Of a DNA stretch of 21,949 nt, positions 305-21,909 are shown piece by piece. Made by a program: the position numbers and the translations under genes. The notes under the pieces were generated by a model that saw nothing but the letters and a program-made list of their open reading frames with translations, was not told the origin of the DNA and searched no databases. This DNA is from an uncultured archaeon (GTDB taxonomy: Archaea > Iainarchaeota > Iainarchaeia > Iainarchaeales > CSSED10-239). Positions within the stretch are counted from its first letter, which is position 1; each line of letters begins with the position of its first letter. The stretch is from NCBI GenBank assembly GCA_964463155.1, contig CAYXAY010000010.1:1-21949 (forward strand). Reading direction: 5' to 3'.

Positions 305-637
305 TTACCTCTTATTATATAGTTTTTCTGTTCTTTTAAATATCTTTTCTGTTTTCTTGTCTATGCCTTGGATAACGAACTTTACCTTCTCTAGGTCCTT
401 TGAAAGACTGCTTTGATGATTTGTTGTCTTGTCTGAAACCCTAGAAAAATTGCAATCCATCTTTTCTATCTTGTTTTCAACAAACTTACAACGCTCTTCA
501 AGGTTTTTTATCTTGTCGTGATTGTCCTCTATTTGTTCATTAAATCTTTCAGAAACATGTCTTATAATAAATATCACAATTATTATTGTAATTATGAAAT
601 TAATAAGTAATATTAGTATTAAATCTCCACCTGTCAA
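305..637 (-). CDS. Small (110 aa) single-pass membrane protein with a charged helical, probably coiled-coil, C-terminal part. Function unknown.
   Basis: ORF track. N-terminal hydrophobic helix LILILLINFIITIIIVIFII, followed by R and a K/E-rich helical segment. The start is TTG at 637, one nt after the TAA of the giant gene, suggesting translational coupling. A paralog lies immediately downstream. Confidence 0.6.
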   Translation of the reverse strand: MTGGDLILILLINFIITIIIVIFIIRHVSERFNEQIEDNHDKIKNLEERCKFVENKIEKMDCNFSRVSDKTTNHQSSLSKDLEKVKFVIQGIDKKTEKIFKRTEKLYNKR

Positions 638-638
638 A

Positions 639-3600
639 TTATCTCAACCCCACAATCCTATCAAATATACTATTATTATAACCTAGAGGTTTATATTTTT
701 TTCTGCGTCTTGACCCTGCAACATAGCCAACAATAAACAATACAAGGATTACAACTGAAGCGCCTATGTAAATGTTTGTTGGGTGGTACATAATAAAACC
801 GCGAGTATTTTCTCTTGTATTAACCACCACAAGAATTTCTTTGTATAACTTGTCTTCCGTTGTTCCAGAGAAGTTTGTTCCTTTGTTGTTTTTAACAACC
901 AAAACCAAATTTTGCACGCCACTTCTATAAGAGGTCATTACCTTAAATATTATTTTTTTTGTTTCGCCTTTCTTAAATGTAAATTTATATTCGTCTATGT
1001 CGATTGACCAATCTTTTGGGGCCAATAATGATACAGAAATGTTTTGCTCGTCGTTACTTGTGTTTTGCAAAATACATTCTATTTCTCCTGAGCTGTTGAT
1101 GTAAAGTTTTGAAACCCTTATGTCATCAAACTTTATTTCAGCTAATGACTTTTCTAGGATTCTAGAAACGCTATCAACGCTTACAAGACCGCCTTTTGTT
1201 TTTATTATAAAGGAGATTAATGTGTCTCCGATTTTAGCATCCTCTGGGATTCTTAGTTTTATTATAACATTTGCTTCTTCATAAGGCAATAGATTTGTCT
1301 TATCTATCTCAATAGTATACCATTCTTTTGGTATGTTTCTTAGAGTTATCTCTAGGTCTTTAAGGACATCGTCGCCTGTGTTTTTGATTTTTAGGACATA
1401 GAACTCTATGTCTCCTTGCTTTACAACCATCTCGCTAGGGTATTCAAACAAAGATATCTGCCCGCCGTCTATTGGCATATTGATAAAACCGGTTATTCCG
1501 CCTGAAGAACCACCACTAGCTGAGCCACCACCACCCCCGGAACCTCCGCCGCCTTGGTTTGTGTCTTGATTGATAGCAACAAACATCTTTGATGCTGCAC
1601 TCATTTCTATTCCATAATATACTTTTACTTTAAACCAATATGTTCCAACATTTTGAGTCAACAAAGTAAGATTTGTTGTCCAGGATTGGCCTGGAGAAAT
1701 CAATTTTGCTCCACTTGAATAATCAATATCATCATTGCCACCACATTGGTTTGTTTGATCAAAAACTATACAGTATTCATATTGGTATTCTTGTGTTGTG
1801 GTTCCTTCGTTTGTTATTAGGACATTTGCAGTGATTGTTGGAACAGTGACATCAGTCATTGCTATAATCTTAACCTCCGGAGGATTTCCTGTTAGTTCCC
1901 AGAAATCACTTGGCTTTGTTGTTACTCCTTTTACTGTTGTTGTAGCTATTGCCTCCCAAACCCCAGCTATCTGCCCTGTTGTAGAAGTGAAATTATAAGT
2001 GTATATTCCTGTTTCAGATAAAGTCATTGGTACATTATTGACAACCAAGTTTCTTGACGGATCGTATAAGGTTATTGTTGGAACAGCATCTGCGTTTCTT
2101 GGAGAACCGTTATGGTCAAACGCCCAAAGCTTTGCGCGATAAATGCTTCCAGGAGCTAATCTATCAAAGTCGCTTAAGACAACAGTAAATTTACTAAGTT
2201 CATTAATATAAATGTTGTTTGTTGTGTCATTAATGTCAGCAAGAAGTGCTTGCATTTGAAGAAGAGCTGCAGAAATGCTTGATTGACTTGCATTAATGTC
2301 CTTTAATGTGTTGTTAATATCAATTATGCCACCGCTTATGCTTGAAACAGAAGAACTTATGTTTGAAACCGCGTTGTTGGTCTGGCCAATAGTGGTGTTT
2401 GTATCTGTTACTGTTTTATTAATATCAGTTACTTTGCTGTTAATATCTGTTAGTCTTTGGTTTATTGTTTTTATGTTATTTGAAGTTGTTGTAAGATTTG
2501 TGTTTATTCCTTGGATGCTTGAAGTTATTGTGCTTGTTGAATTATTTAAATCCGAAATTGTTAAGAAAGTGTTTGTGCTTATAGAATTGATGTCTAGCAC
2601 ATTATTTCCAATAACATTCATTGCTTGATTTAAATCAAGGACGCTTGCGCCTAAGTTATTTGTGCTACCTATTATTGTTTGAAGGCTTATGCATATGTTA
2701 CTATCGGGATTGCCTGCGCAATTTAGGTTATTGTATATTAAAGAAAGATTACCATCTATTGTCAATTGGTTGCTTTGTATTGTGCTTAGAGAAGTTAATA
2801 TGTTTAATAATGATAGATTGTTTGAAAGATTGACATCTGTCAGGTTTTGAGAAAGATTATTTAAAAGATTGACAAGGTTATTGTTTGTAGCGGTAACCAT
2901 TGTTTGAGTGGTTAATATTTCCGACTTAATCTGAGTAACATCTGTGGCTAAATAGTTGACGTTTTTTGTTAAATCAGTTAAGCTTGTAAGGCTTGCGGTT
3001 GTTGTGCTATCAATATTGTTTATTGTGTTACTTACTTGGTTCATTGTAGCATTTAAATCCACTATTCCGGAATCTAAACTATTTATTGAAGAAAATAAAC
3101 TATTTATTAATAAAGTAATTTCGTTTATGTTTGCACATAGTGGTAATACATTTTCATCAGCACAACTTAAATTATTCAAATCAGATATTATCCCTGACAG
3201 ACTTAGTTGTATTGATCCTTGATTGTATTCCAAGGTTGAAAGAAAATTTGTTATTCCTAATAGAGATAATTGGGTTCCTACATTTACATCAGAAATCAAA
3301 GAACTAATATTTGACAAATTATTACAAACACTGTGTTGAAGGGAGTTGTTTGCACAATTTAGCGATGTTTGAATATTTAAAATCTCTGTTTGTATGGTTT
3401 GAGTGTCTGTTTCTATGCCTGTTACTTTTGCTAAAATAAATTTACTGGTTGTATTTATGTCTGTAACTGTTGAATATATGTTTCCGGCTGTGTCATTTAA
3501 ATCATTTACTGTTTGGGTGATTGTTAATGTTGTAGAGTCAATATTGTTTATTGTTGAACTCATTCCAAGAAGAGTATTGTTCATATCTTGCAAGTCGTTA

Positions 3601-6600
3601 TACAGGCTCGCTAATTGATTGCACACCCCGCCGGCTGGAGCAGAAGAACAGGTGTTTATTATTTCTTGGATGTTTGAGGTTGCTGTGTTTATATAATTTA
3701 CATTATTATCAATGTTTGTTAAAGTTGAAGAAATCAAATGCAGTTGAGCTTCTGAAGAAGTTACTGTGCTATTTATGTCTTGAGAATAATTTAAGATTGA
3801 TTGTAATGTTGAATCTAAGGAGGCTATGTCTCCGGTGCTTGCCATATTTCCTTTTATGTAACTAACATTTGAATCTATGTTTAATATTGTTAAATTTATT
3901 GAAGCAACATTAGAATTTATGGTGTTTAATGTATTATTCATCGTTGATAATGTGGTGTTGATTGTTGAAATGTTTTGGTTTATGTCTTGGTTGATTGCTA
4001 AGATTTGTTGCAACAAGGCATTTTGGTCAATTATTGCTTGATTGATATTTGAAACAACTATATTAAGATTTATCAATCTGTCACAAACACTGTTTTCCGG
4101 AGATGTTGAACAACTAAGAAGATCTTCAAGGGATGAAATATTGGTCTTTAGGCTTTGGATGTTGCCATCTATTAAAGACAATTTGGAATTTAGGAGATTG
4201 CTTGTGGAGTTGATTGTTGTAACTGTTGAATAAATGTTGTTTGTGACATTGTTTAAATCAATTATGTTTTGACTTATTATGTTGTTTGTAGAGTTAATTG
4301 TTTGGGTTGTTGAATTGATGTTGTTTAAAACTGCATTCATGTCTGAAAGATTTGTTGTTAAACCATTAAGTTTTCCACAAATGCTTGCTTGAGGACTACT
4401 TTCACAAGTGTTTATGGTTCTGTTGATGTCTATTGCTGTTGTTCTTATTGAATTAATTGTTGAGTTTATATCAAGCAGGCTTGCTTGAAGTTGAGATAGT
4501 GTGTTTGAGGAACTGTGTACTTGAGAATTAATTTCCATTGAATAATTAAGTATTGATTGAATGTTTGTGTTAAGAGCAGAAATGTTTGCCGAAGTTGCCA
4601 TGTTTGTTTTGATATAATTAACATTGGAATCGATGCTGCTTACAATTGTGTTGATTACATTTACATTTGTGTTAATGGTGTTTACTGTGCTATTGATGTT
4701 ATTAACTGTGCTGTTAATTGTGTTTACTGTTCCATTGATTGAATTTATCATTGAATTAATGTCTAATGCTAAGAAATAAATCATATAAAGTGTCTGGTTT
4801 TGATCGGTTGTTAACCCACCGCCTCCCCCTCCAATAACAGAACTTGTTGCTTGATTGACATCAAAGGAAGCTGCACACAAAAACCTGTTTGTGCCTATGT
4901 TTTGATCAATCTTAAGATTATATCCTCCGCCTGTGCTTGGAGCAGTAAATGATTTGTAGTACCAGCCACCTCCAAATTCTGTTAAGTTATAATTGTTTAG
5001 CAGATTGTGATCATAATCATATAGTTTTACTATTGGCGACAAACTCGTCACTGGCGTGTTTGAAGGCCCAATCATTAAAGCCGTTAACGAAACAGTAGAA
5101 TTAAGTGACCAAGTCCCTGGCACAAATATCTGACAACGAGCTTGATTGGTTGCAATAGAACGCAAACTATTTAATCTTATTAAATATTGTTGAAGCGTGT
5201 TTTGGGTTAATATCTTTAAATCATAATATCGACCTGCTGTTGTTGCGGTTTGGGCCTGGGAATAATAACTGTTTATACTTGTTAAATAAGAGTTTGCATA
5301 ATTACAATCGCTTTGTGAGGCCGGCGCTAGAAGAACAAGACAATATCCTGCAAGCTCAGAAGAATAATTATTTGCGGAATTATAATCTGTTTGAATATCT
5401 TTAAAGTATTTGTTTGTACCTACAATCTTTAGTGCTTTTGATTCGTTTGTTACAAAATTTTGCTTAATATAAATTATTGGTTTGTTTTGAGAATTTGTGT
5501 GTATTAGATAATTGCTGGAGTTCAAATCCAAGTAATTTGTTGTTGAAGTTAATAGAGAATTATTTAAGAGAACAGTTACTGGTTGAGTTCTATCTATCCC
5601 CTCAGAAACTTCTGCGCTCACTATGTAATTGGATAAATTATTTGCAATAACATTTTGAAGAGTTATGTTTTGAGTTATTGTAGTTGTATTGGCATCAGAA
5701 AATGAGTGGTTATTTGTTATTAATATTTCGCTTACTGCAGAGCTTACAACAAAGGAACCAATTATTGTTCCTGTGTTGTTTGAGGTCATAGCAATTATCT
5801 CTAAAACATAGGTTCCGTTTGTTGTGTTACTGTCTAATATGAAGTTGTGTGTATAGGTTCCATTATTGTTATTTGTCATTGGAGTAGTCAATAATACATT
5901 GCCACTTGGACCAATTAATCTTAAGGATAATATTGCATTAGTTATTAAACTGCCTATAATTGCATCAGTTACCGTCGCATTCACTATCACTTGATTTCCT
6001 GCAACAAACGCTGTTTGGTTTAAAGAAAGATTAATTGCAAGAGAAGAAATCTTAAAAGAGGTTGTTCCTGTGATTTCTCCATTGTTGTAAGTTGCTTTAA
6101 AGAAATAAAGACCGGCTTGAGCCGTTGTGGGTATGTTATAATCATAGATAAAATTCCCATTTGCATCAGTTGTTGTCTGAAAGGTAGTTAATGGGACTGT
6201 TGGTGCTGAATTTTTAAAAACCTGAACAATTATTGGAGCATTTGCAAGATTGTCGCTATTTTTCATCATAAATCCATTAACTCTTATTGTATTTCCACGA
6301 AGATATTCTCTACTATCTCCTCCTGAGAGAATCATAAATGCTGTGTTTTTCCAATCTCTTAAAAGGAATTGATTTTGATATAATGCATCTTGAAGTCGTG
6401 GAAATACTCTACTCATTAGCTGGTTGTAATCATCAGGATTATTGCTCGTATAAAGAGTATCAAAAGTAAACTCTGAACCACTAAGCATAGGGTTGATTAA
6501 AATTTCGGTCATGAAATCGTTTGTTGGCTGCATCGCGGCAGTATTAAACCACACATTGTGTAAATAGTTTCTAAGCCTATTATATTCCCTGTTAGATTGA

Positions 6601-9600
6601 TAATAAGCAGACCATGGTTGAGAGGCTGTTAATGCTCCCGCAAAAAAGGTAAATATTAATGTTGATGTAGTTGCTGGGACTAAACAGAAAGACCTAGAAT
6701 CAAATCTTGAAAAATCACATTGCCACGGCTGTATGTTTTTGTGTTTTGTGCCTTCGTTTAATTGATCGTGAGAATCAATTATTTGGGTATAGTCCGTATA
6801 GTGTTTGTAATCCCATAAGGAGTTATGTCTTGTATATAGTGCAGCATCAATCCCGAGATCTGGAAGGGTTGTAACTTTGTTTGGTCTTCCATCTATAACA
6901 TTTTCTATTGCTGTGCTTAGTGATCCTGATGTTGGGTAAAGAGAGGCAACTGATGGTCTAAAAGAACTGTATTGTTCTTTATTGTCTTCTCTTCTTGGAC
7001 AAATTGTTCCTTGTTGGGTTGTTGAAAAGTTTTTTATCCAACCGGGTCCTAAATCTAGATCACCAAACGGATTTGCTCCTATATTCCAATTACATGGAGA
7101 TTGAAGATAGGTTAGATTTGAATCCTCTTTGTTCCAAATCTTTGTTTCAGAATATGCTTTTTTATTATATGCAAAACTTGGAGCCCATGCATATCTTGTA
7201 AATCCACTTAATTGTTCTGCGCCTGTTGTTGCATAACCGCTAATTACCATAGGATCAGAGCTTGAAGTAAAAAACCATTTGCCATAGAATTGAGCGCCTC
7301 TTTGTGTTTCTGTGTAATCAAGAACACCATTTATATTTAGAATATTATTAATATAAAGATTAGAAGGATATGGTCTTTCTGGTTTTGCATTTTCAGCAAC
7401 AACAACATTTACATCTCTTTGGAATAATAAATATCTACCAATTGAACCAACACTTGTACTAAATATTACAACTGATGTTGCACAAGGAATATTATTTCTG
7501 CTTGTTTCTACCTTTCTGGTTGAGGAGTTAGAAATTAAATTTTCTAAATCCATTAAAAAATCATCATAGCCTTTGTAACCATACTCTTCAGTTGGGCAAA
7601 CATCTAAAATAAATGTTGATAATTTTGCGGTGGTGTTGTATTGGGAACTAAGAGACAAAGGAGGCATCCATCTGTTTTCTCTGTTGTCTGGAATATAGAG
7701 ATTTGGTTTTAGATAAAATTTTGCTATAGCATTTGGATCAACATATCTGTTATGCGCAGTACGATAGATTGATTCTTTAGGGAATGCATTGACATAACCT
7801 AGATTTCCAACATCCGGAATTACAGAACTTAGATTGGAATCACAAGAAATAAAATCTGTTGTATATGCTGTTGCAAAAGTTGCTGCGTTTGTTGTGTCTG
7901 TTGGAGAGTTTGGTCTCCATGAAAAGTAAGGCCATACTTTGTGAACTGTACAACCTTTACCTGTTTTTCCTATTGCTGAAGAAACATTTGAAAAGGTGTT
8001 GTTATAATCTATAGTGAATTGAAGGGGCAATGGACTTGCTGTTAATGTTGCAGTTTTCTTGTCTGGCGAATATACTGCCGGAATAAAAGCATCCATTAGT
8101 TCTTTTCTTCCAGACCAATCAACATAATTATTGTTTGCAACGGTTGCTGTTCCTTGAGGGATTAATGCGAAAACTGCAATAAAATAATATGGAGGATAAT
8201 TCTGGGAAATTCCTGTTGTCATAATGGGAAGAGGAGAATTAAGTTTTGACATCATTCTTATCCTTCCAGTGTTATTAAAGAAATACCAGCGAGTCATTAT
8301 GATTCTTGTTTGGGGAGAGGTGGCATTTGGATTCCCGGGGGTTGGAGAATGTGGAGAAACCGTGAAGTTTCCTGTGTTCATGTCTATTCTTGTAAATATT
8401 TTGTCCCGGTTATAACTTCTTTGATAACATCTTGAGGCAAAGGTTGCTTGTGCTGCGCCAGTGGTGTTTGTTGTTAAACCAAGACCTGTTCCTGTGCTTT
8501 GTGAATTTAAGTAACCTATGTTTAATGAATATCTTGTTGTTGCGTGATTAAACCAAGTTGCAGCATAGCCGCCAAAATTAAATGCAAATTGGTTGCTTGC
8601 AGTTGCACCAACACCTGGTTGTGACCATTTGTACCAATTGGTGCTATTAATGTCTATTATGTCTGTTCCTGCACCGCAAGTCCCTGAGACAAAAGTAACA
8701 ATTAAATCTGTTTGACCAGTTGGAGAAATTGCGGCGGTTAAAGAGTTGTAATATAGACGATATTGTTTTGTTTGACTTAAAGAAAAATTATCTTGGATAA
8801 ACAAAGTATAGTTGTTGTCAGGAGCACAAACCTCTGAGTCTAATTGGAAAAGACCTATTGGAGTATTAGTGTGGTCTGTTACAATCAAATCAGAACAATT
8901 TGATTTTATTCCGTTTGTAAAATTAACATCAAACCAAAAAGGTTCGTTTGTTCTTGAGATTATCCCTGGTTCTGTTGCAATAAAATCAATTCTGTTTGAA
9001 TAAATGTTTGTGCCGATTACAAAACTTCCGCTTTGATTTTGACCTTGAGAAACAATAATTGGGTGTGCTATTTTTTTGGTGTCCTCATCAATGTAATTCC
9101 AATGCCTATTACCATCGGTTCCTGCCCCAAGGGGTTTTGTAAGGAAATAAGATTCGTTCCAAGAATCAATTGAAGCATCAAAAAAATCCTGTATTGAATT
9201 TTTAGCAGCGTCATTTGCAAAAACGGTTGATTGACCTAATTGATTTGACCATAAATTGTTGTTTTTTCCAAACCTTGTTGCATAACCTAAAATCTGATTA
9301 TTGGTTGGATTATGACTTGATATCCAGGCCCATTTATCTTCGCCATAGGTTTTTGTTATAGGATAATCGCTCCAGCTTTTTGGATTAACTAAAAAATAGT
9401 TTGCAATTGAAGCAAGTTTGACGCCGTTTTGAGTATGTAAAAGATTTGTGCTTACCGGCATATTTTCATATAAACAATATCTATTGTTTATGTGCCAACC
9501 AAACAACTTGTCAGGATATGTTGCTGTTTGACAGAATATTCCACTATCAAATTCATCAAACATGAATTTCAGATTATTGAAAGGAGTTGGATTAGGAAGA

Positions 9601-11267
9601 GTTGCTGCTGTTGAATAGGTTGTCATTATTCTCGGGTCCATTAGTTGGGACGATGCGGTTTCTGTTGCTGTGAATTCTTTGTAAGCATTAATTATACCAA
9701 ATCGCAAATATGAAGTGTTAAATCTGTTGTCATCAGTGTTTAAATATTGACCATTACTGTCTGCTACTTTAAAAGTGAATTTTGGAGTCTCATTACTATA
9801 GAACACATTTTTTGTTGGGTTCATTACAAAATGATAAAGATTTGGATTACTTCTGATCCAAAGATTTGTGTCATAAAAAGTTTCAACACTGACGTCATTC
9901 TTTGCAAGTTTTTGTATTCTTCCTGTTGAATAAACTGGATAGATGTATCCGTTTTCCTCTGAATCAACCCACAAGTCGATAGGGCTTGCTTGAACTGAAC
10001 CTGTGCCGTATGCTGCTGTGCTTGCGGGAAGCCAAGATCTCCAGTTTACCCAGCCTATTGTTCCATCTGATTTTTTTATTTGAATTATTGGTCCGCCATT
10101 TATTCCTGCACCGCCAAGAGTTGGAGACTGGACAGCAATATAACAATTTACTGAATCGCACATTATCTTATTGTATTGTCCATAAACATAATGGTCGTCT
10201 ATTCTTTGACTTCTCCATACTAACACTCCTGTAGCAGAATCTAAAGCAAAAGCATAACCGCCAAAAAACGGACCAAGGACTGTGTTGTTAAGCCCTTTTG
10301 CAACAAACACTCTTGAATTATCACAAGCTATTCCGTTTGCTGATTGAGTGACAGAATCATCTGGATCTGAATTCCAAAGAGTTGCGCCAGTTGTGTAATC
10401 ATAAGCTAGAATATTTCCGTCAGCATAAGCAACAAAAACCCTTGTATTATCGGGGCTTATACAAATGTCGTTAGCAATTGATGCTCTTGCTGTGGGCGCG
10501 AATGCAGAAACTAGAGACGGTGTTGTTGTTAGATTTTGATATTTTCTTGGAGCTGTGCTTGCTGCATAACCAATAAATGCAAAACCACTTGAAATCGCAA
10601 TAGTTTGCGCATTGGCTGCTGCAGTAGTAAACGCGGTTGTTCCTGTACAATTGGACATTAATGTTCTTCTAAGGTTGTTTGATGTTGCTGCATAAGTTGT
10701 ATAAATAAATGTTCCGTCTGTTGCTATGCCATTGCCTGTGATTGCTACACCAATATTTACATTACAATCTCTTGCACCAGTTGACATATTGAATTTTTCA
10801 ATACCCCCTGTTGTTGTTGTTGATGTTGAAATTACATAACAAGAGGTGCCATCACAAAAAATCTTATTTTTAGAAGTTGCATAATCACCGCCAGCATTCC
10901 AATACATTGTTGCAGAAATATTGTTTGCTACAGAAAAGTATTGTTTTCCAGGGGACAATCTAAAATCATAAGGAACGGTCCAATTAAATGTAAAATTACC
11001 ATCTGCATTTGTTGTAACTAATCTTGGAAACCCCCATTGTTCATTGTAACCATCCCACCATGCAGTATTTGGTTCTAAATTGTTTTGTAAAACTAAGGTT
11101 GTGCTTGGAGAAAACCCTGTTCCTGTGATTACTACGGTGTCACCTATATGGGTTTCGTTTTTATCAATAGAAAGATTTCCTGCAAAAACAAAATTTGAAA
11201 AAAATATAAAAAATAAAACCCCAGTTATAATTTTATAAAATAAATTTAGACTAATTTTTGAATGCAT
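639..11267 (-). CDS. Giant (about 3540 aa) secreted cell-surface protein with a C-terminal membrane anchor (adhesin or S-layer-like fibre).
   Basis: Uninterrupted ORF 639..11303. I prefer the ATG at 11267, which gives MHSKISLNLFYKIITGVLFFIFFSNFVFA, a canonical signal peptide, over the upstream TTG at 11303. Domain order by eye: Ig-like, beta-propeller repeats, long unassigned W/Y/F/N-rich region, Ig-like sandwiches, heptad stalk, CARDB/NEW3-like sandwiches, TM helix plus SRRRKK. N-x-S/T sequons are very frequent throughout. Confidence 0.9.
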   Translation of the reverse strand: MHSKISLNLFYKIITGVLFFIFFSNFVFAGNLSIDKNETHIGDTVVITGTGFSPSTTLVLQNNLEPNTAWWDGYNEQWGFPRLVTTNADGNFTFNWTVPYDFRLSPGKQYFSVANNISATMYWNAGGDYATSKNKIFCDGTSCYVISTSTTTTGGIEKFNMSTGARDCNVNIGVAITGNGIATDGTFIYTTYAATSNNLRRTLMSNCTGTTAFTTAAANAQTIAISSGFAFIGYAASTAPRKYQNLTTTPSLVSAFAPTARASIANDICISPDNTRVFVAYADGNILAYDYTTGATLWNSDPDDSVTQSANGIACDNSRVFVAKGLNNTVLGPFFGGYAFALDSATGVLVWRSQRIDDHYVYGQYNKIMCDSVNCYIAVQSPTLGGAGINGGPIIQIKKSDGTIGWVNWRSWLPASTAAYGTGSVQASPIDLWVDSEENGYIYPVYSTGRIQKLAKNDVSVETFYDTNLWIRSNPNLYHFVMNPTKNVFYSNETPKFTFKVADSNGQYLNTDDNRFNTSYLRFGIINAYKEFTATETASSQLMDPRIMTTYSTAATLPNPTPFNNLKFMFDEFDSGIFCQTATYPDKLFGWHINNRYCLYENMPVSTNLLHTQNGVKLASIANYFLVNPKSWSDYPITKTYGEDKWAWISSHNPTNNQILGYATRFGKNNNLWSNQLGQSTVFANDAAKNSIQDFFDASIDSWNESYFLTKPLGAGTDGNRHWNYIDEDTKKIAHPIIVSQGQNQSGSFVIGTNIYSNRIDFIATEPGIISRTNEPFWFDVNFTNGIKSNCSDLIVTDHTNTPIGLFQLDSEVCAPDNNYTLFIQDNFSLSQTKQYRLYYNSLTAAISPTGQTDLIVTFVSGTCGAGTDIIDINSTNWYKWSQPGVGATASNQFAFNFGGYAATWFNHATTRYSLNIGYLNSQSTGTGLGLTTNTTGAAQATFASRCYQRSYNRDKIFTRIDMNTGNFTVSPHSPTPGNPNATSPQTRIIMTRWYFFNNTGRIRMMSKLNSPLPIMTTGISQNYPPYYFIAVFALIPQGTATVANNNYVDWSGRKELMDAFIPAVYSPDKKTATLTASPLPLQFTIDYNNTFSNVSSAIGKTGKGCTVHKVWPYFSWRPNSPTDTTNAATFATAYTTDFISCDSNLSSVIPDVGNLGYVNAFPKESIYRTAHNRYVDPNAIAKFYLKPNLYIPDNRENRWMPPLSLSSQYNTTAKLSTFILDVCPTEEYGYKGYDDFLMDLENLISNSSTRKVETSRNNIPCATSVVIFSTSVGSIGRYLLFQRDVNVVVAENAKPERPYPSNLYINNILNINGVLDYTETQRGAQFYGKWFFTSSSDPMVISGYATTGAEQLSGFTRYAWAPSFAYNKKAYSETKIWNKEDSNLTYLQSPCNWNIGANPFGDLDLGPGWIKNFSTTQQGTICPRREDNKEQYSSFRPSVASLYPTSGSLSTAIENVIDGRPNKVTTLPDLGIDAALYTRHNSLWDYKHYTDYTQIIDSHDQLNEGTKHKNIQPWQCDFSRFDSRSFCLVPATTSTLIFTFFAGALTASQPWSAYYQSNREYNRLRNYLHNVWFNTAAMQPTNDFMTEILINPMLSGSEFTFDTLYTSNNPDDYNQLMSRVFPRLQDALYQNQFLLRDWKNTAFMILSGGDSREYLRGNTIRVNGFMMKNSDNLANAPIIVQVFKNSAPTVPLTTFQTTTDANGNFIYDYNIPTTAQAGLYFFKATYNNGEITGTTSFKISSLAINLSLNQTAFVAGNQVIVNATVTDAIIGSLITNAILSLRLIGPSGNVLLTTPMTNNNNGTYTHNFILDSNTTNGTYVLEIIAMTSNNTGTIIGSFVVSSAVSEILITNNHSFSDANTTTITQNITLQNVIANNLSNYIVSAEVSEGIDRTQPVTVLLNNSLLTSTTNYLDLNSSNYLIHTNSQNKPIIYIKQNFVTNESKALKIVGTNKYFKDIQTDYNSANNYSSELAGYCLVLLAPASQSDCNYANSYLTSINSYYSQAQTATTAGRYYDLKILTQNTLQQYLIRLNSLRSIATNQARCQIFVPGTWSLNSTVSLTALMIGPSNTPVTSLSPIVKLYDYDHNLLNNYNLTEFGGGWYYKSFTAPSTGGGYNLKIDQNIGTNRFLCAASFDVNQATSSVIGGGGGGLTTDQNQTLYMIYFLALDINSMINSINGTVNTINSTVNNINSTVNTINTNVNVINTIVSSIDSNVNYIKTNMATSANISALNTNIQSILNYSMEINSQVHSSSNTLSQLQASLLDINSTINSIRTTAIDINRTINTCESSPQASICGKLNGLTTNLSDMNAVLNNINSTTQTINSTNNIISQNIIDLNNVTNNIYSTVTTINSTSNLLNSKLSLIDGNIQSLKTNISSLEDLLSCSTSPENSVCDRLINLNIVVSNINQAIIDQNALLQQILAINQDINQNISTINTTLSTMNNTLNTINSNVASINLTILNIDSNVSYIKGNMASTGDIASLDSTLQSILNYSQDINSTVTSSEAQLHLISSTLTNIDNNVNYINTATSNIQEIINTCSSAPAGGVCNQLASLYNDLQDMNNTLLGMSSTINNIDSTTLTITQTVNDLNDTAGNIYSTVTDINTTSKFILAKVTGIETDTQTIQTEILNIQTSLNCANNSLQHSVCNNLSNISSLISDVNVGTQLSLLGITNFLSTLEYNQGSIQLSLSGIISDLNNLSCADENVLPLCANINEITLLINSLFSSINSLDSGIVDLNATMNQVSNTINNIDSTTTASLTSLTDLTKNVNYLATDVTQIKSEILTTQTMVTATNNNLVNLLNNLSQNLTDVNLSNNLSLLNILTSLSTIQSNQLTIDGNLSLIYNNLNCAGNPDSNICISLQTIIGSTNNLGASVLDLNQAMNVIGNNVLDINSISTNTFLTISDLNNSTSTITSSIQGINTNLTTTSNNIKTINQRLTDINSKVTDINKTVTDTNTTIGQTNNAVSNISSSVSSISGGIIDINNTLKDINASQSSISAALLQMQALLADINDTTNNIYINELSKFTVVLSDFDRLAPGSIYRAKLWAFDHNGSPRNADAVPTITLYDPSRNLVVNNVPMTLSETGIYTYNFTSTTGQIAGVWEAIATTTVKGVTTKPSDFWELTGNPPEVKIIAMTDVTVPTITANVLITNEGTTTQEYQYEYCIVFDQTNQCGGNDDIDYSSGAKLISPGQSWTTNLTLLTQNVGTYWFKVKVYYGIEMSAASKMFVAINQDTNQGGGGSGGGGGSASGGSSGGITGFINMPIDGGQISLFEYPSEMVVKQGDIEFYVLKIKNTGDDVLKDLEITLRNIPKEWYTIEIDKTNLLPYEEANVIIKLRIPEDAKIGDTLISFIIKTKGGLVSVDSVSRILEKSLAEIKFDDIRVSKLYINSSGEIECILQNTSNDEQNISVSLLAPKDWSIDIDEYKFTFKKGETKKIIFKVMTSYRSGVQNLVLVVKNNKGTNFSGTTEDKLYKEILVVVNTRENTRGFIMYHPTNIYIGASVVILVLFIVGYVAGSRRRKKYKPLGYNNSIFDRIVGLR
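714..773 (-). other. C-terminal transmembrane anchor followed by a basic cytoplasmic tail.
   Basis: IYIGASVVILVLFIVGYVAG, then SRRRKKYKPLGYNNSIFDRIVGLR. I saw no LPXTG or PGF motif before it. Confidence 0.8.
800..1490 (-). other. Two tandem CARDB/NEW3-like (COG1470-type) beta-sandwich domains next to the membrane anchor.
   Basis: GDIEFYVLKIKNTGDDVLKDLEITLRNIPKEWYTIEIDKTNLLPYEEANVIIKLRIPEDAKIGDTLISFIIKT and GEIECILQNTSNDEQNISVSLLAPKDWSIDIDEYKFTFKKGETKKIIFKVMTSYRSGVQNLVLVV. Each shows the typical pattern v-N-t-G-...-l-...-v-p-.-g-W-...-l-.-p-G-e-...-v-.-v-.-v-P. Confidence 0.5.
1497..1553 (-). other. Gly/Ser-rich flexible linker (GGGGSGGGGGSASGGSSGG).
   Basis: Read directly from codons 1497..1553. 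This is locally the most GC-rich stretch I noticed in the window. Confidence 0.85.
1890..2189 (-). other. Ig-like domain immediately after the stalk.
   Basis: FTVVLSDFDRLAPGSIYRAKLWAFDHNGSPRNADAVPTITLYDPSRNLVVNNVPMTLSETGIYTYNFTSTTGQIAGVWEAIATTTV. Confidence 0.45.
2190..4800 (-). repeat. About 870-aa Asn/Ile/Ser/Thr/Leu-rich heptad-repeat (coiled-coil-like) stalk with a large internal duplication and six Cys-loop interruptions.
   Basis: Heptads such as INSTVNT INSTVNN INSTVNT INTNVNV INTIVSS. Anchor motif IDSNVNYIKTNMA (I codon 4632..4634) recurs as IDSNVSYIKGNMA (I codon 3876..3878), an offset of 756 nt or 252 aa. The following about 250 aa align by eye. Cys pairs lie at 4377..4406, 4083..4112, 3621..3650, 3324..3356, 3135..3164 and 2691..2720. 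Confidence 0.75.
4615..4765 (-). repeat. Imperfect 21-nt (one heptad) tandem repeats within coding sequence.
   Basis: The minus strand reads ATC AAT GGA ACA GTA AAC ACA / ATT AAC AGC ACA GTT AAT AAC / ATC AAT AGC ACA GTA AAC ACC / ATT AAC ACA AAT GTA AAT GTA / ATC AAC ACA ATT GTA AGC AGC / ATC GAT TCC AAT GTT AAT TAT. Confidence 0.75.
4815..4832 (-). other. Hexaglycine hinge at the N-terminal boundary of the stalk.
   Basis: Codons ccc acc gcc tcc ccc tcc on the plus strand encode GGGGGG on the minus strand (VIGGGGGGLTT). Confidence 0.85.
4850..5140 (-). other. Ig-like domain immediately before the stalk, homologous to the one after the stalk.
   Basis: SPIVKLYDYDHNLLNNYNLTEFGGGWYYKSFTAPSTGGGYNLKI parallels PTITLYDPSRNLVVNNVPMTLSETGIYTYNFTSTTGQIAGVWEAI at 1890..2189. 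Confidence 0.45.
5740..6310 (-). other. Two tandem Ig-like or carboxypeptidase-regulatory-like beta-sandwich domains.
   Basis: PIIVQVFKNS...TTDANGNFIYDYNIPTTAQAGLYFFKATYNNGEITGTTSFKISS, then NQVIVNATVTD...LRLIGPSGNVLLTTPMTNNNNGTYTHNFILDSNTTNGTYVLEIIA. These have the alternating beta-strand pattern typical of such folds. Confidence 0.5.
8745..8945 (-). other. Possible DUF2341-like beta-sandwich segment inside the unassigned central region.
   Basis: FWFDVNFTNGIKSNCSDLIVTDHTNTPIGLFQLDSEVCAPDNNYTLFIQDNFSLSQTKQYRLYYNS resembles my memory of the DUF2341 pattern (D-i-r-f-t-D ... l-p-y-e-i-e ... v-W-V ... i-y-l-Y-Y-G-N). Memory-based only. Confidence 0.25.
9900..10880 (-). other. Beta-propeller region (PQQ/BamB-like blade repeats). 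Boundaries approximate.
   Basis: Recurrent blade-like motifs: IFCDGTSCYVIS, IATDGTFIYTTY, ISPDNTRVFVAYADGNILAYDYTTGATLWNS, IACDNSRVFVAKG...GGYAFALDSATGVLVWRS, IMCDSVNCYIAV...IIQIKKSDGTIGW, GYIYPVYSTGRIQKL. Confidence 0.55.
11178..11267 (-). other. Signal peptide of the giant protein.
   Basis: MHSK n-region, hydrophobic core ITGVLFFIFFSNFVF, and an A-G boundary (VFA/GNLS). Confidence 0.7.
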
Positions 11268-11309
11268 ATTATTCCAAATTAAAGATTTAAATTTTAATAC
11301 CAATAATTG

Positions 11310-11424: not shown

Positions 11425-12096
11425 ATGAACTCTATTGAAAAAATATATAACCGATTGTTAACAGATTATGGGAGACAAGGCTGGTGGCCATTATCTGATA
11501 TTGGTTATCATCCTGGAAAATATTATTTGATTAAAACACATGCACAAATATTTGAAATATATGCTGGGGCAATATTAACACAAAGTGCTTCTTGGAAAAA
11601 TGTCGAAAAAGCAATCTATAATCTTAAAAAAAATGATTTGCTTAATCCTAAAGCAATAATTGAAAAAGACCAAGAAACAATAAAACATGCAATTAAATCT
11701 GTTGGCTATTATAATCAAAAATATCAAAGACTCGTTGATATTTCTAAATTTTATTTATCTTTAAAAGATAGAATGCCTACAAGATCTGAACTTCTTTCTG
11801 TTAAAGGAATTGGAAAAGAAACAGCGGATTCTATTCTTTTATATGGTCATAGAGAACCAATCTTTGTTGTTGATGCTTATACAATAAGAATACTATTAAA
11901 TCTTAAAATTATCAAGAAAAATGCAAAATACGAAGAAATACAGAAATTATTTGTGGATAACCTTCCAAGAGATTTCAAGATTTATCAAGAATATCATGCT
12001 CTTTTAGTAGAACATGCAAAAAGATATTATACTAAACGCACAATTAAAGAAAAAAAGAATAAAAAGATAATTGATCCCTTAATTGAAATTATCTAA
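11425..12096 (+). CDS. HhH-GPD superfamily DNA glycosylase, endonuclease III-related (COG2231-like). It has no C-terminal Fe-S cysteine cluster.
   Basis: Helix-hairpin-helix LLSVKGIGKETADSILLYG followed by PIFVVDAYTIRIL (Asp codon 11872..11874). WW motif YGRQGWWP near the N-terminus. The product contains no cysteine at all. Confidence 0.8.
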   Translation: MNSIEKIYNRLLTDYGRQGWWPLSDIGYHPGKYYLIKTHAQIFEIYAGAILTQSASWKNVEKAIYNLKKNDLLNPKAIIEKDQETIKHAIKSVGYYNQKYQRLVDISKFYLSLKDRMPTRSELLSVKGIGKETADSILLYGHREPIFVVDAYTIRILLNLKIIKKNAKYEEIQKLFVDNLPRDFKIYQEYHALLVEHAKRYYTKRTIKEKKNKKIIDPLIEII

Positions 12097-15000
12097 CTTT
12101 ATTATAAAATTCATTAAAATTATCTAATAATTTGGTGTGATAATTAGGATCTTCTGCCCATGTTCTTGCAACCTCTCTAACAGTCAGTCCTTTATAATGC
12201 TTGGTTCTTACTAAATTAACTAATGTTGCTTCAAAACCAGCATGTAATGTTGGATAAGTACAAAAGTCGCTATTTCTTACTTTGTAACCGCCACATGCAC
12301 AACCAGCATAAGACTTAATTCCTGTCGGATTATTATTTAAAACTAATGCTCCATTTTTATAATTCCCTGATAACACATTATACATTGATTTTTCATTTTT
12401 AAATTTAGCTAATACAAATATTGGGTCTACTCCATAAATAGCACATAAATTATATAATGTAGGAATTGCGGTCGTAAATTTTTCATGTGCGCGATATCTA
12501 TTTGGAATAGGTTGAGAAATTTTTATAATATCTTGATAAGACAGAGATGGTGTGCTTAGAACAATAACACTATCTAGATTTCGTCTAATATTTCTTGCTG
12601 TTGCTAAATTAAGATTTCCAGAACTTAATTTTCTAAGTGATTCTGCATTTGTTGTATAACAATTATCTGTTCCAGTTTTTAAACTTGCAATCACCTGTAG
12701 AGGGGCTTTTTGTTGTGGAGATCTTTGTTGATTGTTTTGTGACCTTTTAGTTTTAAGTGTCATCACATTAGGCAATTTTCCTAAAACAAATTGCTCTGTA
12801 TTTTTTTCCTGTAAATCTAATAATTGAGAATAACTTGTTTTTGAATTATAGATATAAACATAAGTTCCGTTTTGTACATTGTTAAACAAATTAATAATAT
12901 CATTATTTAACATTCTTATACATCCATGAGATTTTTGTTGGCCCATTGAATTTTCATAATTTGTTCCATGTATGTATGTTCCTCTGTAAATTGTATTTCT
13001 ATTCCCACTATCACAACCAACACCTAAATTCTCTTTTTCTAAACCGTCAAGAACAAGTTTTCGTGTAACGATTTTTGCAGTTCCTGAATTTAAACTTGCA
13101 AATACTGGAAAACCGTTATTTGTTTCAGGCCCATTTGCCCCAATTACTTGCAATGGAACTGCATTTTGACCGGATTTTTGTATAACTCTAAATAATCCCA
13201 AAGGTGTTTTTAAACTACCAGTTTCACATCCAAATCCATTAACTCCCGTAGATATTGGATATTCAGAAATAATTTGTGTTTGATTATTTAATTTTTTTAC
13301 TAAAAATATTCTTTTATATTTTCCTAATATTATTATCATTGGATCTTGAGAAACTAATCTAATTCTTTCATTAATTTCTGACATTGAATTAGTATAATTG
13401 GTTTTATAATATATATTAAATTCTTTTTGTAAGATCCTATCATAAACTTCATTTAATTCTCCATACATATTGTCATTTAATACCGTTCTTTGAGTTGAAG
13501 AAGCCAGTTCAAAAGAATTATAATAATCTAAAATATAATCTGGCAAAATTGTATTATTTACCTCCATAGACCCAAAATAAATAGATCGCTCTCTTGCTTT
13601 TGCTCTTAATTTTTGATATAGATTATTAGAAATAATAACTTCTTTTATTTGTCCATCTTCATAATATCCACAAGCATTCTTTCCTCTTGCTGTTGTTTTT
13701 AAGAAAACATCTAATTTTTCTATTTTTAATGTGCTTCCCCAAGAGTGTATAATATAATGATTAGAACCAATTTTTCCTAGATAAACAACAACATGACTAT
13801 ATTCTTTATTCCAATAACTTGTGTTGTTATGTTTTATACCAAGAATAGAACCCGGAACTAAAGAATCATAATAACTTTTATTTAAAGTTCCAACTGTTGT
13901 TTTCCAGATACTTTTGTTATTTGGTTGCATTGCTAAATCCCACGCATTTGCAGAATCAAATCTATATCCAAAAAAATAATTATTGAAATTTTTAATAAAT
14001 GCAGAACAGGAATTAACTCTTGGATTAGACCAATAGCTTACACAGTTTGTGGGGGTGTTTGGAACACAAGTTGTATTAAATCTGGAATAAAATCCGCCGT
14101 TTGGTGTTTGCGCGGTTTTTGAAACTTGACAAATTAAAGATTCGTTACAATTAAACAAATCTATAAATTCTTTATTTAGATTTGGTTCAGCCTTTAATAA
14201 TTCCTTGTATGCAAGCCCATAATTTCTAAAAACATCTAAATTACGAATTTCAATTTGATTTTGTAATTGAGTATTTACTAAATTCATTTTTTCATATAAT
14301 TCGTTTCCATTTTCTGTGTAAATCGCAAGGCTTGTGTTTACCTGAGAACCTGTATTTTGTGTTAATTGATTAGATAAAGAATTACTTTCATTAATTACTT
14401 TATTAAATTCATTATATGCTATAGATTTAATAGAATCCAATTCTACAGCTATATTTTTCCAAACACTAAAACTATCTTGCGAAACTAAAAAACAAAATTC
14501 TCTATTTGATATTCCATTAATTAATTCTGATAAATTAAAATTTATTTCCGGAACAATAATTTTGTAAAGATAAAGATTATCAACTACAGAATAATTTAAA
14601 TGCTCTAAATTAAATAACAATAAATTTGTTGATTCAATAATTAACGGATAATCTCTAAATATGGGTTTTGGGGGATAAATAATTAAGGTGTCTCTTGTTT
14701 GATCTTCTATATAAATTACAGAAATATTTTGCAAATCTATAGGCACATATTCTTTTCCGTTATAATTTTTTATTGTAATTTCGGTGTCTTGTTCTTTAGT
14801 TATTATCACCGGGCTAGTATAGTTGATTGAAATATTTGAATTTAAAACAAAAAGTTTTCCATTTTGCAAATCATTGGTTGTATCTATTTGATTAATATTT
14901 TTAGATTTTATTGAATCTGTTTGACTTAAAAAATCAGAATTAAAATTATAGCTAATTGGATTTATTGATTTATAAAATAATGGATTATATGAATAATATC

Positions 15001-18859: not shown

Positions 18860-19022
18860 AAGAAACAAGCATTTTCCTGTTATTTCCAGTAAGTTTCGCG
18901 AAAAGTATTTAAATAGAAAGAATTATAAGGTTTGTATAAGTAAACGATTTAATGAAAATGTCATTAAATCCCCTTTAGGAATAAAACTAAAAATTTAAGG
19001 AGAAAAGAAAATGAATGAAAAA
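18845..19022 (+). repeat. Leader repeat copy 2.
   Basis: See copy 1. It overlaps the last 15 nt of CDS 17588..18859 and runs through ATGAATGAAAAA of CDS 19011..20591. Confidence 0.9.
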
Positions 19023-20591
19023 TTAACAAAATCAATTAACATTGGTGTTATTGCTATTGTTCTTGTATTTTTAGCATTAATAGTGACACCAAAGATTTCT
19101 GCAACCGAAACAGGAAATGTACCGGCAAATAATGCGGAACAAATAACTAGTGTTTTTCCAACAACCGGTGTTTGGGTTGTTGTTACTGAATCTGGAAAAC
19201 CATTAAATAACAGAAGTGTAAAGTTCATTGAACCAAACAACGGTGAACCAGAATATGTGCCTAGAGAATACAAAACCAATGAATTGGGAGTAATATATTT
19301 GAGATTAGGCACTAATCTGGAATTCAAAATAGCAGACACAAAAACAGGCATTGCTAAAATTATTAACACTGGTTTTGTAGGACCAATACTAATAAATTTA
19401 GATGTAACTAACTACGGAACTCAAAATAACGACTATCCGGAAGGAATTTTTGATTTAAAAGTAAGTGTAAAAGATAAGCACACTAATAAACCAATATCAT
19501 CTGCAAGAGTGTCAATACAAAGTGAAGATTACACTTCAACTCAAAGAACATTTTTTACAAACGATGAGGGCGTTACAATTATTGAATATTTACCAACCGG
19601 TATATATTCTTTCAGAATTTCAGCAACTAATTATGTTGAACAAAATGTAAAAAATTATTTCTTTGGTTCAACCAGCAATTTAAATATTGACTTGCGTACT
19701 GCAAATTTTGAGCAAAACCCATTAGATGGTCGCACTAATCATTTAATCTCTTTTGAAAAATGTGCAGTAGACAAATTAAAAACAATTATTTCAAAAGAAG
19801 CAGTCACATCAAGAAGTGAAGTTAAACACTACAATGTTTGCGAAGCTAAAGGATTTATTGACTACCACAAAAAAATATATTATATGTCTAAAGATGAAAG
19901 CTATATTTCTAGGGTTACTTTAAACAATTTAGATTTAACTAAATATACACAAAAACAAACACCAAAAGCAAAATTAATATTTTCAACAGACTCTGGAAAT
20001 AAATGTTATGAAAAAGAATTAATGTTATTAAAATCTGTGCCAGAGCAAGGGGCTTATAAATTTATAACAACATTAATTAAAGAAGATCTTCTTGAAACAC
20101 AAAAATCAGACATTGGTTATCTTAGTGCAAATTGTGGAATAGGAAAGATAATTAAACTATCTGTTGAAATATATGATGTAGACAATAACCCTATCTTTTC
20201 TATAGAGGATGTTTCTTCAATAACAAGAATAATGATTTTCTCAAATAAAGAAGAAGATATGGCTATAGCAAATCAAGAAAATAACCAGAGAGTGACTAGC
20301 GATATAATTCAAAGAGAAAGAACTGAAATTTCAAATATTAAAGAACATCAAATTTCTAGAGAATCTGAAATCTTTGTAAATATTGGTAATGAAAAAAGAA
20401 AAGTCGTTTCAATAGAAAATATTTTAGAAGAAAGAAATATCAATCCAAACAAAATCATCAGTGACATAAAACTAGAAGAGACAGAATATGTTTTTGATGT
20501 TAAAGAAAAAAAGAGACTTTTGGGGTTCATTCCTTTTGGAGAAAAGATAGTTGAAAAAAGAATATCTGCCATAAGAGAAATTAGAGAGTAA
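19011..20591 (+). CDS. Secreted protein (526 aa): carboxypeptidase-regulatory-like beta-sandwiches, the shared four-Cys domain and a charged C-terminal extension.
   Basis: GGAG at 18999..19002. Signal peptide MNEKLTKSINIGVIAIVLVFLALIVTPKISA. DLKVSVKDKHTNKPISSARVSIQSEDYTSTQRTFFTNDEGVTIIEYLPTGIYSFRISATNYVEQ (about 19441..19680) fits the CarboxypepD_reg-like pattern. Confidence 0.85.
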   Translation: MNEKLTKSINIGVIAIVLVFLALIVTPKISATETGNVPANNAEQITSVFPTTGVWVVVTESGKPLNNRSVKFIEPNNGEPEYVPREYKTNELGVIYLRLGTNLEFKIADTKTGIAKIINTGFVGPILINLDVTNYGTQNNDYPEGIFDLKVSVKDKHTNKPISSARVSIQSEDYTSTQRTFFTNDEGVTIIEYLPTGIYSFRISATNYVEQNVKNYFFGSTSNLNIDLRTANFEQNPLDGRTNHLISFEKCAVDKLKTIISKEAVTSRSEVKHYNVCEAKGFIDYHKKIYYMSKDESYISRVTLNNLDLTKYTQKQTPKAKLIFSTDSGNKCYEKELMLLKSVPEQGAYKFITTLIKEDLLETQKSDIGYLSANCGIGKIIKLSVEIYDVDNNPIFSIEDVSSITRIMIFSNKEEDMAIANQENNQRVTSDIIQRERTEISNIKEHQISRESEIFVNIGNEKRKVVSIENILEERNINPNKIISDIKLEETEYVFDVKEKKRLLGFIPFGEKIVEKRISAIREIRE

Positions 20592-21539: not shown

Positions 21540-21909
21540 AAGAATAATAATCGGAATAATTATGGCAATTGTTTTTGTTTCGGGATTAGTTATTGGGTTT
21601 CTAATCTTTTCTGAAAAAAATACAACAGAGATTGCAAATCCGGCGTCTGCTTATTGTAAAAATCTTGGAGGAACATTAAATATTGTATCTTCAAAACAAG
21701 GAGAATATGGAATATGCACATTTGAAGATGGATCTCAATGTGAAGAATGGAAACTTTATAGAAAAGGGTGCTTTAAAGGACAATATCCTCCAACAGGAGG
21801 TAAAGTTTGTACAATGGAATACAAACCTGTTTGTGGAGTTAATGGGGTTACTTATGGGAATGCATGTGCTGCAGACAGTGTTCCAATACTAAAAGAAGGA
21901 GAATGTTAA
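21529..21909 (+). CDS. Membrane-anchored or secreted DUF333-like plus Kazal-like (serine protease inhibitor fold) protein.
   Basis: I prefer the ATG at 21529, with AGGTGA at 21518..21523, over the track's TTG at 21499. It overlaps the preceding gene by 11 nt. Hydrophobic helix IIIGIIMAIVFVSGLVIGFLIF. NPASAYCKNLGGTLNIVSSKQGEYGICTFEDGSQCEEWKLYRKGC matches the DUF333 pattern. CTMEYKPVCGVNGVTYGNAC...GEC (21808..21906) matches the Kazal core C-x7-C-x10-C with PVCG.nG.TY.N.C. Confidence 0.75.
   Translation: MLNKRIIIGIIMAIVFVSGLVIGFLIFSEKNTTEIANPASAYCKNLGGTLNIVSSKQGEYGICTFEDGSQCEEWKLYRKGCFKGQYPPTGGKVCTMEYKPVCGVNGVTYGNACAADSVPILKEGEC

Follow-up and report, generated by a model that had tools for sequence, protein, structure and literature searches.

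A giant surface protein of a DPANN archaeon with a conserved orphan head, a coiled-coil stalk of variable length and a membrane anchor: a candidate device for partner contact

What kind of protein takes up nearly half of a short archaeal contig? We analysed positions 1 to 21,949 of contig CAYXAY010000010.1 (assembly GCA_964463155.1, uncultured archaeon), called the window in the following, in which a single giant gene covers 10,629 of the 21,949 bases (48%), close to the half estimated in an earlier note on this DNA. The gene forms one unbroken minus-strand frame (639..11303) and encodes, from its first ATG at 11267, a product of 3,542 amino acids (aa; window 639..11267, minus strand). The predicted mass of the mature protein is about 385 kDa, with about 235 kDa for its head and 124 kDa for an orphan core within the head. 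The reading we prefer, at a probability of roughly 55%, is a head-stalk-anchor fibre, serving as an adhesin or as a host/partner-contact device in a DPANN archaeon of Woesearchaeota type with a small genome. Two papers describe all cultivated DPANN archaea as contact-dependent ectosymbionts (PMC11291902, PMC11329633).

The giant open reading frame (ORF) might be suspected to be an artefact of assembly or gene calling, for instance a chimera or a repeat that was collapsed or expanded, as its stalk is internally duplicated and of low complexity. The duplication is old, however (40-48% aa identity, E down to 6e-23 in segment-wise BLASTP), and neither Tandem Repeats Finder nor a repeat finder detected long near-identical DNA repeats in the gene. 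Only short 21-nucleotide (nt) arrays and patches of 26-41 nt occur there, and the duplication itself has left short patches at 756-nt spacing as its traces in the DNA. Furthermore, collinear full-length homologues of 3,164-3,562 aa are present in independent NCBI, JGI and ENA assemblies, and more distant homologues reach 4,315-4,387 aa, one of them on a 757-kb contig. All homologues possess an N-terminal hydrophobic stretch. The old duplication, the lack of near-identical repeats and the independent homologues effectively refute an artefact, whose chance we consider negligible; the ORF is intact and uninterrupted, and the gene shows no sign of the collapsed repeat that the earlier note had named as a possible artefact.

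Read from the membrane outwards, the product consists of an anchor, a sandwich base, a hinge, the stalk, a second hinge and the distal head (Table 1). The earlier note had proposed this order from the letters alone, and the domain assignments reproduce it. The transmembrane (TM) helix with its RRRKK tail, a Gly/Ser hinge, two further beta-sandwiches, a heptad stalk of about 870 aa, a hexaglycine hinge, which places glycine hinges on both sides of the stalk, the immunoglobulin (Ig)-like domains preceding that hinge, about 1200 aa of unassigned sequence and a beta-propeller were all recovered where the note had placed them. Three of its claims stood in part: of two CARDB/NEW3-like domains next to the membrane, one is a NEW3 domain scoring above its gathering cut-off, but CARDB found no match and the second domain gave weak signals; the Ig-like N-terminal tip lies where it was expected, with weak matches; and homology between the Ig-like domains flanking the stalk received modest support.

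Conservation is distributed unevenly along the protein. In an alignment of seven full-length homologues the heads share 35-66% identity. Column identity amounts to 0.5-0.69 across residues 50-1750, drops to 0.23-0.41 in the region of the MG2 array, is lowest in the stalk (0.12-0.39, with many gaps) and rises again in the module following the stalk (0.53-0.67). The heptad region comprises 826 aa in the window protein, 455 aa in the homologue P0002, whose head is 66% identical, 833 aa in P0003 and 546 aa in P0005. P0012 has about 100 helical residues with one Cys loop in its place, and P0009 has no heptad region, its hinge following directly after the Ig domains. Close relatives differ about two-fold in stalk length, and in divergent members no more than about 0-100 aa are left. 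This pattern, a uniformly conserved head and a stalk of varying length, strengthens the idea of a head on a spacer. As judged from the alignment, the family is built as a fixed head on an evolvable spacer, with foot and anchor as apparently exchangeable parts.

The stalk itself is characterised by a pronounced heptad periodicity. Its mean local power at a period of 3.5 residues was 1.65, compared to 0.22 +/- 0.04 (maximum 0.36) in 500 shuffles and to 0.15 in the head; along residues 2157-3020 the power was 1-2.6 at this period and mostly 0.1-0.8 at 3.67. Position a is occupied by Leu, Val or Ile, position d mostly by Ile (62 of about 110), position e mostly by Asn and position g mostly by Thr. 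Only a and d are hydrophobic, and the stalk is nearly free of charged residues (isoelectric point 4.05). Pfam and NCBIfam returned generic coiled-coil matches only, and so did the family profile when compared with PDB chains, where the best 60 of 146 matches were to proteins such as myosin, SMC and the hairpin bundle of a methyl-accepting chemotaxis protein (MCP). According to the coiled-coil rules ascribed to Harbury et al. (1993), beta-branched Ile at d combined with Leu, Val or Ile at a reportedly disfavours dimers and suits parallel trimers or tetramers. Since the stalk shows this occupation of a and d with two hydrophobic core positions, a dimer is disfavoured, and the stalk is probably a parallel trimer or tetramer. 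It would measure about 128 nm if fully extended (0.1485 nm per residue). Loops of the type that punctuates it are also present in the stalks of the homologues, and the motif LT.[DE]QNQTLY after the hexaglycine hinge recurs in the homologue P0020.

The largest part of the head has no recognisable relatives outside the family. For residues 500-1700 there was no Pfam match even at E<=5, and the core likewise had no match in NCBIfam or PHROGs, no PDB chain match to the family profile at E<=10 and no relative among the viral contigs of IMG/VR. A viral receptor-binding origin, considered as a candidate, found no support in the PHROGs and IMG/VR scans. Residues 739-839 resemble DUF2341 by eye, but Pfam gave no such match at E<=5. 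A HMMER profile of residues 570-1650 retrieved 10 matches from 1.84 billion representative proteins, all belonging to the same family and carrying the core at the same position. In a profile-profile self-comparison, the propeller blades matched one another and the tip matched an MG-type domain, and no other repeats appeared; because there are none within the core, it is not a string of Ig modules. AlphaFold2 gave a mean predicted local distance difference test (pLDDT) value of 29.5 for residues 480-1679 with the alignment of seven family sequences, too low for a usable model of the fold. Twenty cysteines of the head, 14 in the core and 6 in the propeller, are invariant in all seven aligned homologues. 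They fall into neighbouring pairs, as expected of an extracellular globular head, suggesting ten disulfides. Invariant polar and aromatic stretches of the core include NRENR (1195-1199), EEYGYKGYDDF (1227-1237) and RHNSLWDYKHY (1480-1490).

On its distal side the core is preceded by the propeller and the tip. The propeller matches PQQ_2 (PF13360) marginally at residues 272-353, with 29.1 bits in a segment scan (cut-off 27.6) and 24.1 bits in the scan of the whole protein, and BamB (TIGR03300) weakly. Its blades recur seven-fold at a spacing of about 45 aa and match each other in hhalign at 40-48% probability. A profile search with the N-terminal 533 aa yielded two distant PQQ_2 proteins as the sole outside relatives, in a search that did not recover the protein's own family. 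For the tip, TIG and CarboxypepD_reg were matched at E values of 0.07-0.09 and hhalign assigned a probability of 73% to its similarity to the MG-type domain near residue 1700; its column identity across the family is 55-63%. On the proximal side, MG2 (PF01835) was matched with 63.5 bits over the whole protein (cut-off 32.8) and 46 bits at residues 1752-1838. A weaker MG2 match after the stalk places MG2-like domains on both sides of it, and pairwise BLASTP between the two sides returned E values of 0.002 and 1e-4 over about 33 residues. These domains are also known from alpha-2-macroglobulin, but there is no C.EQ motif anywhere in the protein and no A2M or TED match in Pfam, and a thioester protein of this kind was rejected.

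At the other end, the hydropathy scan found a single TM helix (3496-3519) followed by RRRKK and a short tail. The tail carries a conserved motif, K..GY.NSIFD[RK][IL].GLR (window 642-710, minus strand), which recurs in the fragment P0027 and in the family consensus and might be where a cytoplasmic partner docks. Of the two sandwiches in front of the membrane, the first matches NEW3/NPCBM_assoc (PF10633) at residues 3283-3353 with 28.6 bits (gathering cut-off 24.4; 26.3 bits in another scan), and the second shows a weak FixG_C match. The pLDDT values are 66-92 for residues 3261-3371 and 30-58 for residues 3383-3482. CARDB (PF07705) was not matched at E<=5, either in a segment scan of residues 3250-3500 or anywhere else in the protein. 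The two sandwiches of the post-stalk module are predicted with confidence (residues 3029-3239, pLDDT about 90-98, alignment of 46 sequences) and contain the motif EYQYEYCIV...QCGG.DD.DY with its Cys pair. Foldseek aligned the foot model with generic tandem Ig/MG arrays (complement C3, alpha-2-macroglobulin, SbsC, titin, ECAM), always with low TM-scores, which were below 0.25 for the C3, A2M and ECAM arrays; for the predicted model, these matches show 'beads on a string' and nothing more specific.

The post-stalk module occurs in other proteins, too. A search with residues 3030-3542 of the window protein matched 45 proteins from archaeal and Candidate Phyla Radiation (CPR)-labelled sources at 37-56% identity (E values between 1e-30 and 1e-168). 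Two of them are fragments of family members; the others are 300-870 aa long and have only the post-stalk module of about 200 aa in common with the giant protein. Ten alignment columns, the Cys pair included, are invariant in the module. A type I dockerin (Dockerin_1) is located at the C-terminus of 36 of the 46 aligned proteins, and MG2 is found in 26 of them. The window protein has no dockerin match; NEW3 domains and a TM helix take its place. Direct reading showed 'W.Y..R.LT' helical repeats in front of the module in P0036 and P0041, and a glycine-rich linker after it in P0036, P0041 and P0044. P0036 is encoded in a closed CPR genome of 808 kb, that of a Candidatus Nomurabacteria bacterium (CP064958.1; locus L011, 6001-7920), and P0030, which is labelled Woesearchaeota, carries the module as well. 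This distribution suggests an exchange of surface-display parts between archaea and bacteria (DPANN/CPR).

Table 1. Features of the giant protein and their positions in the window
Feature	Residues	Window positions	Strand	Basis
Start codon and typical signal peptide, MHSKISLNLFYKIITGVLFFIFFSNFVFA/GN (...FVFA/GN)	1-29	11181..11267	-	direct sequence reading
N-terminal Ig-like tip	30-130	10878..11180	-	weak TIG, neocarzinostatin and CarboxypepD_reg matches
Seven-bladed PQQ/BamB-like beta-propeller	131-465	9873..10877	-	PQQ_2 and blade repeats
Orphan head core, non-repetitive, aromatic-rich	466-1655	6303..9872	-	no family match
MG2-type/Ig-like array with short helical insert	1656-2145	4833..6302	-	MG2 PF01835
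Hexaglycine hinge GGGGGG	2146-2151	4815..4832	-	direct reading
Heptad coiled-coil stalk (about 865 aa)	2152-3020	2208..4814	-	heptad periodicity
Diverged tandem duplication in the stalk (about 252 aa)	2155-2400 vs 2414-2653	3309..4805 (4068-4805 vs 3309-4028)	-	segment-wise BLASTP
Six C-x8-9-C loops punctuating the stalk		2691..4406	-	cysteine positions
Cys loop 1	2288-2297	4377-4406
Cys loop 2	2386-2395	4083-4112
Cys loop 3	2540-2549	3621-3650
Cys loop 4	2638-2648	3324-3356
Cys loop 5	2702-2711	3135-3164
Cys loop 6	2850-2859	2691-2720
Post-stalk module: MG2-like sandwich and second sandwich with C3166-C3175	3021-3238	1554..2207	-	AlphaFold, homology
Gly/Ser hinge (19 residues)	3239-3257	1497..1553	-	direct reading; pLDDT <50
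Two membrane-proximal sandwiches, the first NEW3/NPCBM_assoc	3258-3495	783..1496	-	Pfam and AlphaFold
TM helix (3496-3519), basic cytoplasmic tail RRRKKYKPLGYNNSIFDRIVGLR, stop codon	3496-3542	639..782	-	hydropathy scan; AlphaFold helix 3497-3518

Put together, these parts would work as follows. The protein would be exported via its N-terminal signal peptide and tethered by the single TM helix with a positive-inside tail, in a type-I-like topology. Four Ig-like beta-sandwiches and the Gly/Ser hinge would form a flexible foot, from which the segmented coiled coil would rise as a spacer of about 865 residues. The hexaglycine hinge would couple this rod to the disulfide-rich head of MG2-type Ig domains, orphan core, propeller and Ig-like tip; thanks to the glycine stretches that bracket the rod, the head would be free to swing. 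The conserved head would be the working part, binding a ligand on another cell or surface, while the stalk could be adapted in length and base and anchor could be replaced as modules. Of this picture, the intact gene, its export and anchoring signals, the order of its domains, the heptad pattern, the spread of the family, the contrast between conserved head and variable stalk and the orphan core are shown by the sequences; the oligomer, the extension of the stalk, movement at the hinges, disulfides, glycosylation and the activity of the head are inferred.

The family is small, and we found no paper on it. Its named members are designated 'Candidatus Woesearchaeota archaeon' or 'archaeon', and the locus of P0020 encodes TBP, MCM, RFC and eIF, indicating a chromosomal gene of an archaeon (DPANN). 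Short contigs with family members have been binned as Woesebacteria (KKQ98159.1), Methanosarcinales and Diapherotrites (L005; L007; L008). As the longer contigs are assigned to Woesearchaeota and have an archaeal context, these labels probably stem from errors in binning. Some members contain additional Ig domains and inserts that look beta-helix-like by eye. The foot of P0020 carries a PGF-pre-PGF domain; no PGF motif is present in the window protein, and anchoring by archaeosortase/PGF-CTERM or by sortase was rejected, as the motifs are absent. P0010 and P0018 have extra TM helices and longer cytoplasmic tails ending in a stretch that by eye resembles a PRC barrel, and Pfam PRC matches 2 of the 46 proteins in the foot-module alignment. 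P0009 (L012, 10001-16675; 2,224 aa) has an unrelated N-terminus of about 340 aa, with no PHROG match, in place of the signal peptide, the tip and the greater part of the propeller, and the gene lies among many small unannotated ORFs; it may be a chimera, a gene with a miscalled start or a real variant.

On the same strand as the giant gene, the window contains a gene for a secreted or anchored protein of 1,752 aa (12089-17347, minus strand). Its YkuD L,D-transpeptidase domain scored 58.9 bits, its C-terminal region shows a weak likeness to glucosaminidases, and one stretch looks like NlpC/P60 by eye. These domains are of the peptidoglycan-active kind, here in an archaeon. The gene is syntenic beside the giant gene in the contigs of P0002 and absent from the more distant loci. 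The product of a 110-aa ORF (305-637, minus strand) directly downstream of the giant gene has a TM helix at its N-terminus, followed by a coiled-coil tail rich in charges; P0002 is followed by a counterpart of 111 aa in the same position, and the product might act as a membrane partner. The plus strand encodes two more proteins of the surface or secreted kind, one of 526 aa with CarboxypepD_reg and Big_1 domains (19011-20591) and a small one with DUF333 and a Kazal-type protease-inhibitor domain (21499-21909). At the locus of P0012 (L010, 3586-9999) the giant gene follows directly after another giant gene (2,137 aa, Laminin_G_3) and a gene for a transglutaminase-core protein; a gene for an Rce1-like protease follows it, and an integrase gene is nearby. 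The GC content of the giant gene (0.30-0.39, compared to 0.24-0.30 elsewhere in the window) and its strong strand skew probably reflect the Asn/Thr/Ser/Gly-rich product, a foreign origin being the other option.

A signal peptide, a very large size, a C-terminal TM anchor and Ig-rich regions are also features of stalked archaeal surface-layer (S-layer) proteins, and the window protein might be the tetrabrachion-like S-layer protein of its lineage, the stalk being the pillar under a canopy of lattice-forming heads. Being the 'largest secreted, anchored protein' serves as a criterion for S-layer candidates, and known stalks measure 70 nm in tetrabrachion (a tetrameric coiled coil), about 30 nm in SlaB and 37 nm in the 2,667-aa Pyrobaculum S-layer protein (bioRxiv 10.64898/2026.08.21.746120). 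Stalks ranging from about 0 to about 830 aa among relatives with 35-66% identical heads, however, would result in canopy heights that fit one envelope plan poorly. A fibre that swings is also a better match for the two flexible glycine hinges than a stiff pillar, and a pseudo-periplasm about 130 nm deep would come close to a whole DPANN cell in size. We regard an S-layer role as rather unlikely. The head could also be chiefly an enzyme, displayed on the stalk against a host or prey for the degradation of envelope glycans, peptidoglycan or protein, with binding as a secondary function. Its non-repetitive 124-kDa core with many invariant polar and aromatic residues would be in line with this, and so would the adjacent gene of the YkuD/glucosaminidase-like kind, a pairing that recurs beside P0002. 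As no catalytic family was matched in Pfam, NCBIfam or PDB, and the neighbour is missing at the loci of more distant homologues, such a role appears unlikely to us.

The geometry of the stalk has to be weighed as well. Six proline-containing C-x8-9-C loops cut its helices into segments of 53-160 aa and the heptad register often shifts at the loops, so the helices might reverse there and pack into a compact antiparallel bundle that keeps the head near the cell; the MCP hairpin bundle among the PDB matches would be in line with this. That match is one of many compositional matches to coiled coils such as myosin and SMC, however, and the segments are very unequal (about 130, 88, 144, 88, 53, 138 and 160 aa) and poorly suited to paired hairpins. 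As only a and d are hydrophobic, a bundle, which needs broader faces, is disfavoured. The heptad phase follows no consistent rule across the loops and therefore does not choose between an extended stalk and a hairpin. We consider the bundle distinctly unlikely, although folding back at the six loops is compatible with an analysis made at the level of the monomer. This weighs against the extended fibre, as do several further points. No operon partner is conserved across six homologous loci, the neighbourhood being kept only in the closest relative. The weak matches of the Ig-like tip, and the weak FixG_C match and low pLDDT of the second NEW3-like domain, leave these two parts of the architecture faint. 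The orphan core could be an enzyme instead of a binder. Heavy N-glycosylation had to be rejected as a special feature, as the 97 sequons of the protein are about what its composition predicts (z = 0.5 in the stalk). The head-stalk-anchor fibre nevertheless remains the reading we favour.

To our knowledge, little is known of the ways in which uncultivated DPANN archaea locate their partners and stay attached to them, and we know of no characterised host-contact structure of the Woesearchaeota. Giant DPANN surface proteins are already known as a class, and the family described here adds a concrete and testable candidate for partner contact. Its stalks, which range naturally in length between about 0 and about 830 residues, amount to an experiment on spacer function that nature has already set up, and its head core marks more than 1,000 residues of sequence space without detectable relatives or a usable predicted structure. 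The base module in common with CPR bacteria would point to an exchange of surface-display parts between two ultra-small groups. Specialists may be interested in the 124-kDa core with its orphan status, in the polar coiled coil, potentially 130 nm long and furnished with disulfide loops, in the stalk-length series and in the DPANN-CPR foot module. As a doubtful further step, the core might be a new fold for the capture or processing of hosts in Woesearchaeota, carried on a stalk of about 130 nm that is tuned to the envelope of the partner and would rank with the longest single-chain coiled-coil stalks known from prokaryotic surfaces; the foot module would then belong to a toolkit exchanged between DPANN and CPR, and the neighbouring gene for a giant peptidoglycan-active protein would hint at a bacterial partner. 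If the protein is only an S-layer pillar or a generic adhesin, it is still a large variant of the archaeal head-stalk-anchor theme, without a new principle.

Among known systems, tetrabrachion, the S-layer protein of Staphylothermus marinus, shares with the window protein a signal peptide, a C-terminal membrane anchor, a very long coiled-coil stalk (parallel in tetrabrachion) and a beta-rich distal part, all in one polypeptide. Its coiled coil is of the right-handed, 11-residue type, however, whereas the stalk described here follows the canonical 3.5-residue heptad. Tetrabrachion reaches 70 nm, compared to potentially about 128 nm here, where disulfide loops interrupt and glycine hinges bracket the stalk, and it ends in lattice arms instead of a 235-kDa globular head. 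No relationship to tetrabrachion was seen among the best 60 of 146 matches in the PDB chain profile search, in which full-length tetrabrachion was not compared directly. SlaB of the Sulfolobales combines N-terminal Ig-like sandwiches, a coiled coil and a C-terminal TM anchor in an oligomeric membrane-standing stalk, too, but is several-fold smaller, lacks a large head and pairs with the separate lattice protein SlaA; homology to it was not detected. PySLP of Pyrobaculum is likewise a secreted, anchored, multi-domain archaeal surface protein and the largest of its genome, but its stalk consists of Ig domains and not of a coiled coil.

Trimeric autotransporter adhesins such as YadA and BadA carry a conserved binding head on a coiled-coil stalk of widely varying length, held in the outer membrane of Gram-negative bacteria by a C-terminal beta-barrel. 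The window protein follows the same 'lollipop' logic of head, stalk and anchor with a variable stalk length, but it has a single TM helix and no YadA-type Pfam match and is evolutionarily unrelated. The SPEARE proteins of Nanohaloarchaeota are giants with serine protease and restriction-endonuclease domains, and DPANN giants of this kind have been proposed to act in host contact; neither Pfam nor NCBIfam matched protease or nuclease domains of the SPEARE type in the window protein. A further likeness is that to the dockerin-bearing MG2/beta-sandwich proteins. Here the module is truly homologous (37-56% identity, E down to 1e-69) and occupies the same place after helical repeats and before a Gly-rich linker, but these proteins, 300-870 aa in length, have no head and no long heptad stalk, and in 36 of the 46 aligned proteins a type I dockerin stands at the C-terminus in place of the TM helix. 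As far as its sequence allows a classification, the giant protein is a true member of known families at the level of domains only, namely MG2, NEW3 and, marginally, PQQ_2, together with the dockerin-linked family of the foot module.

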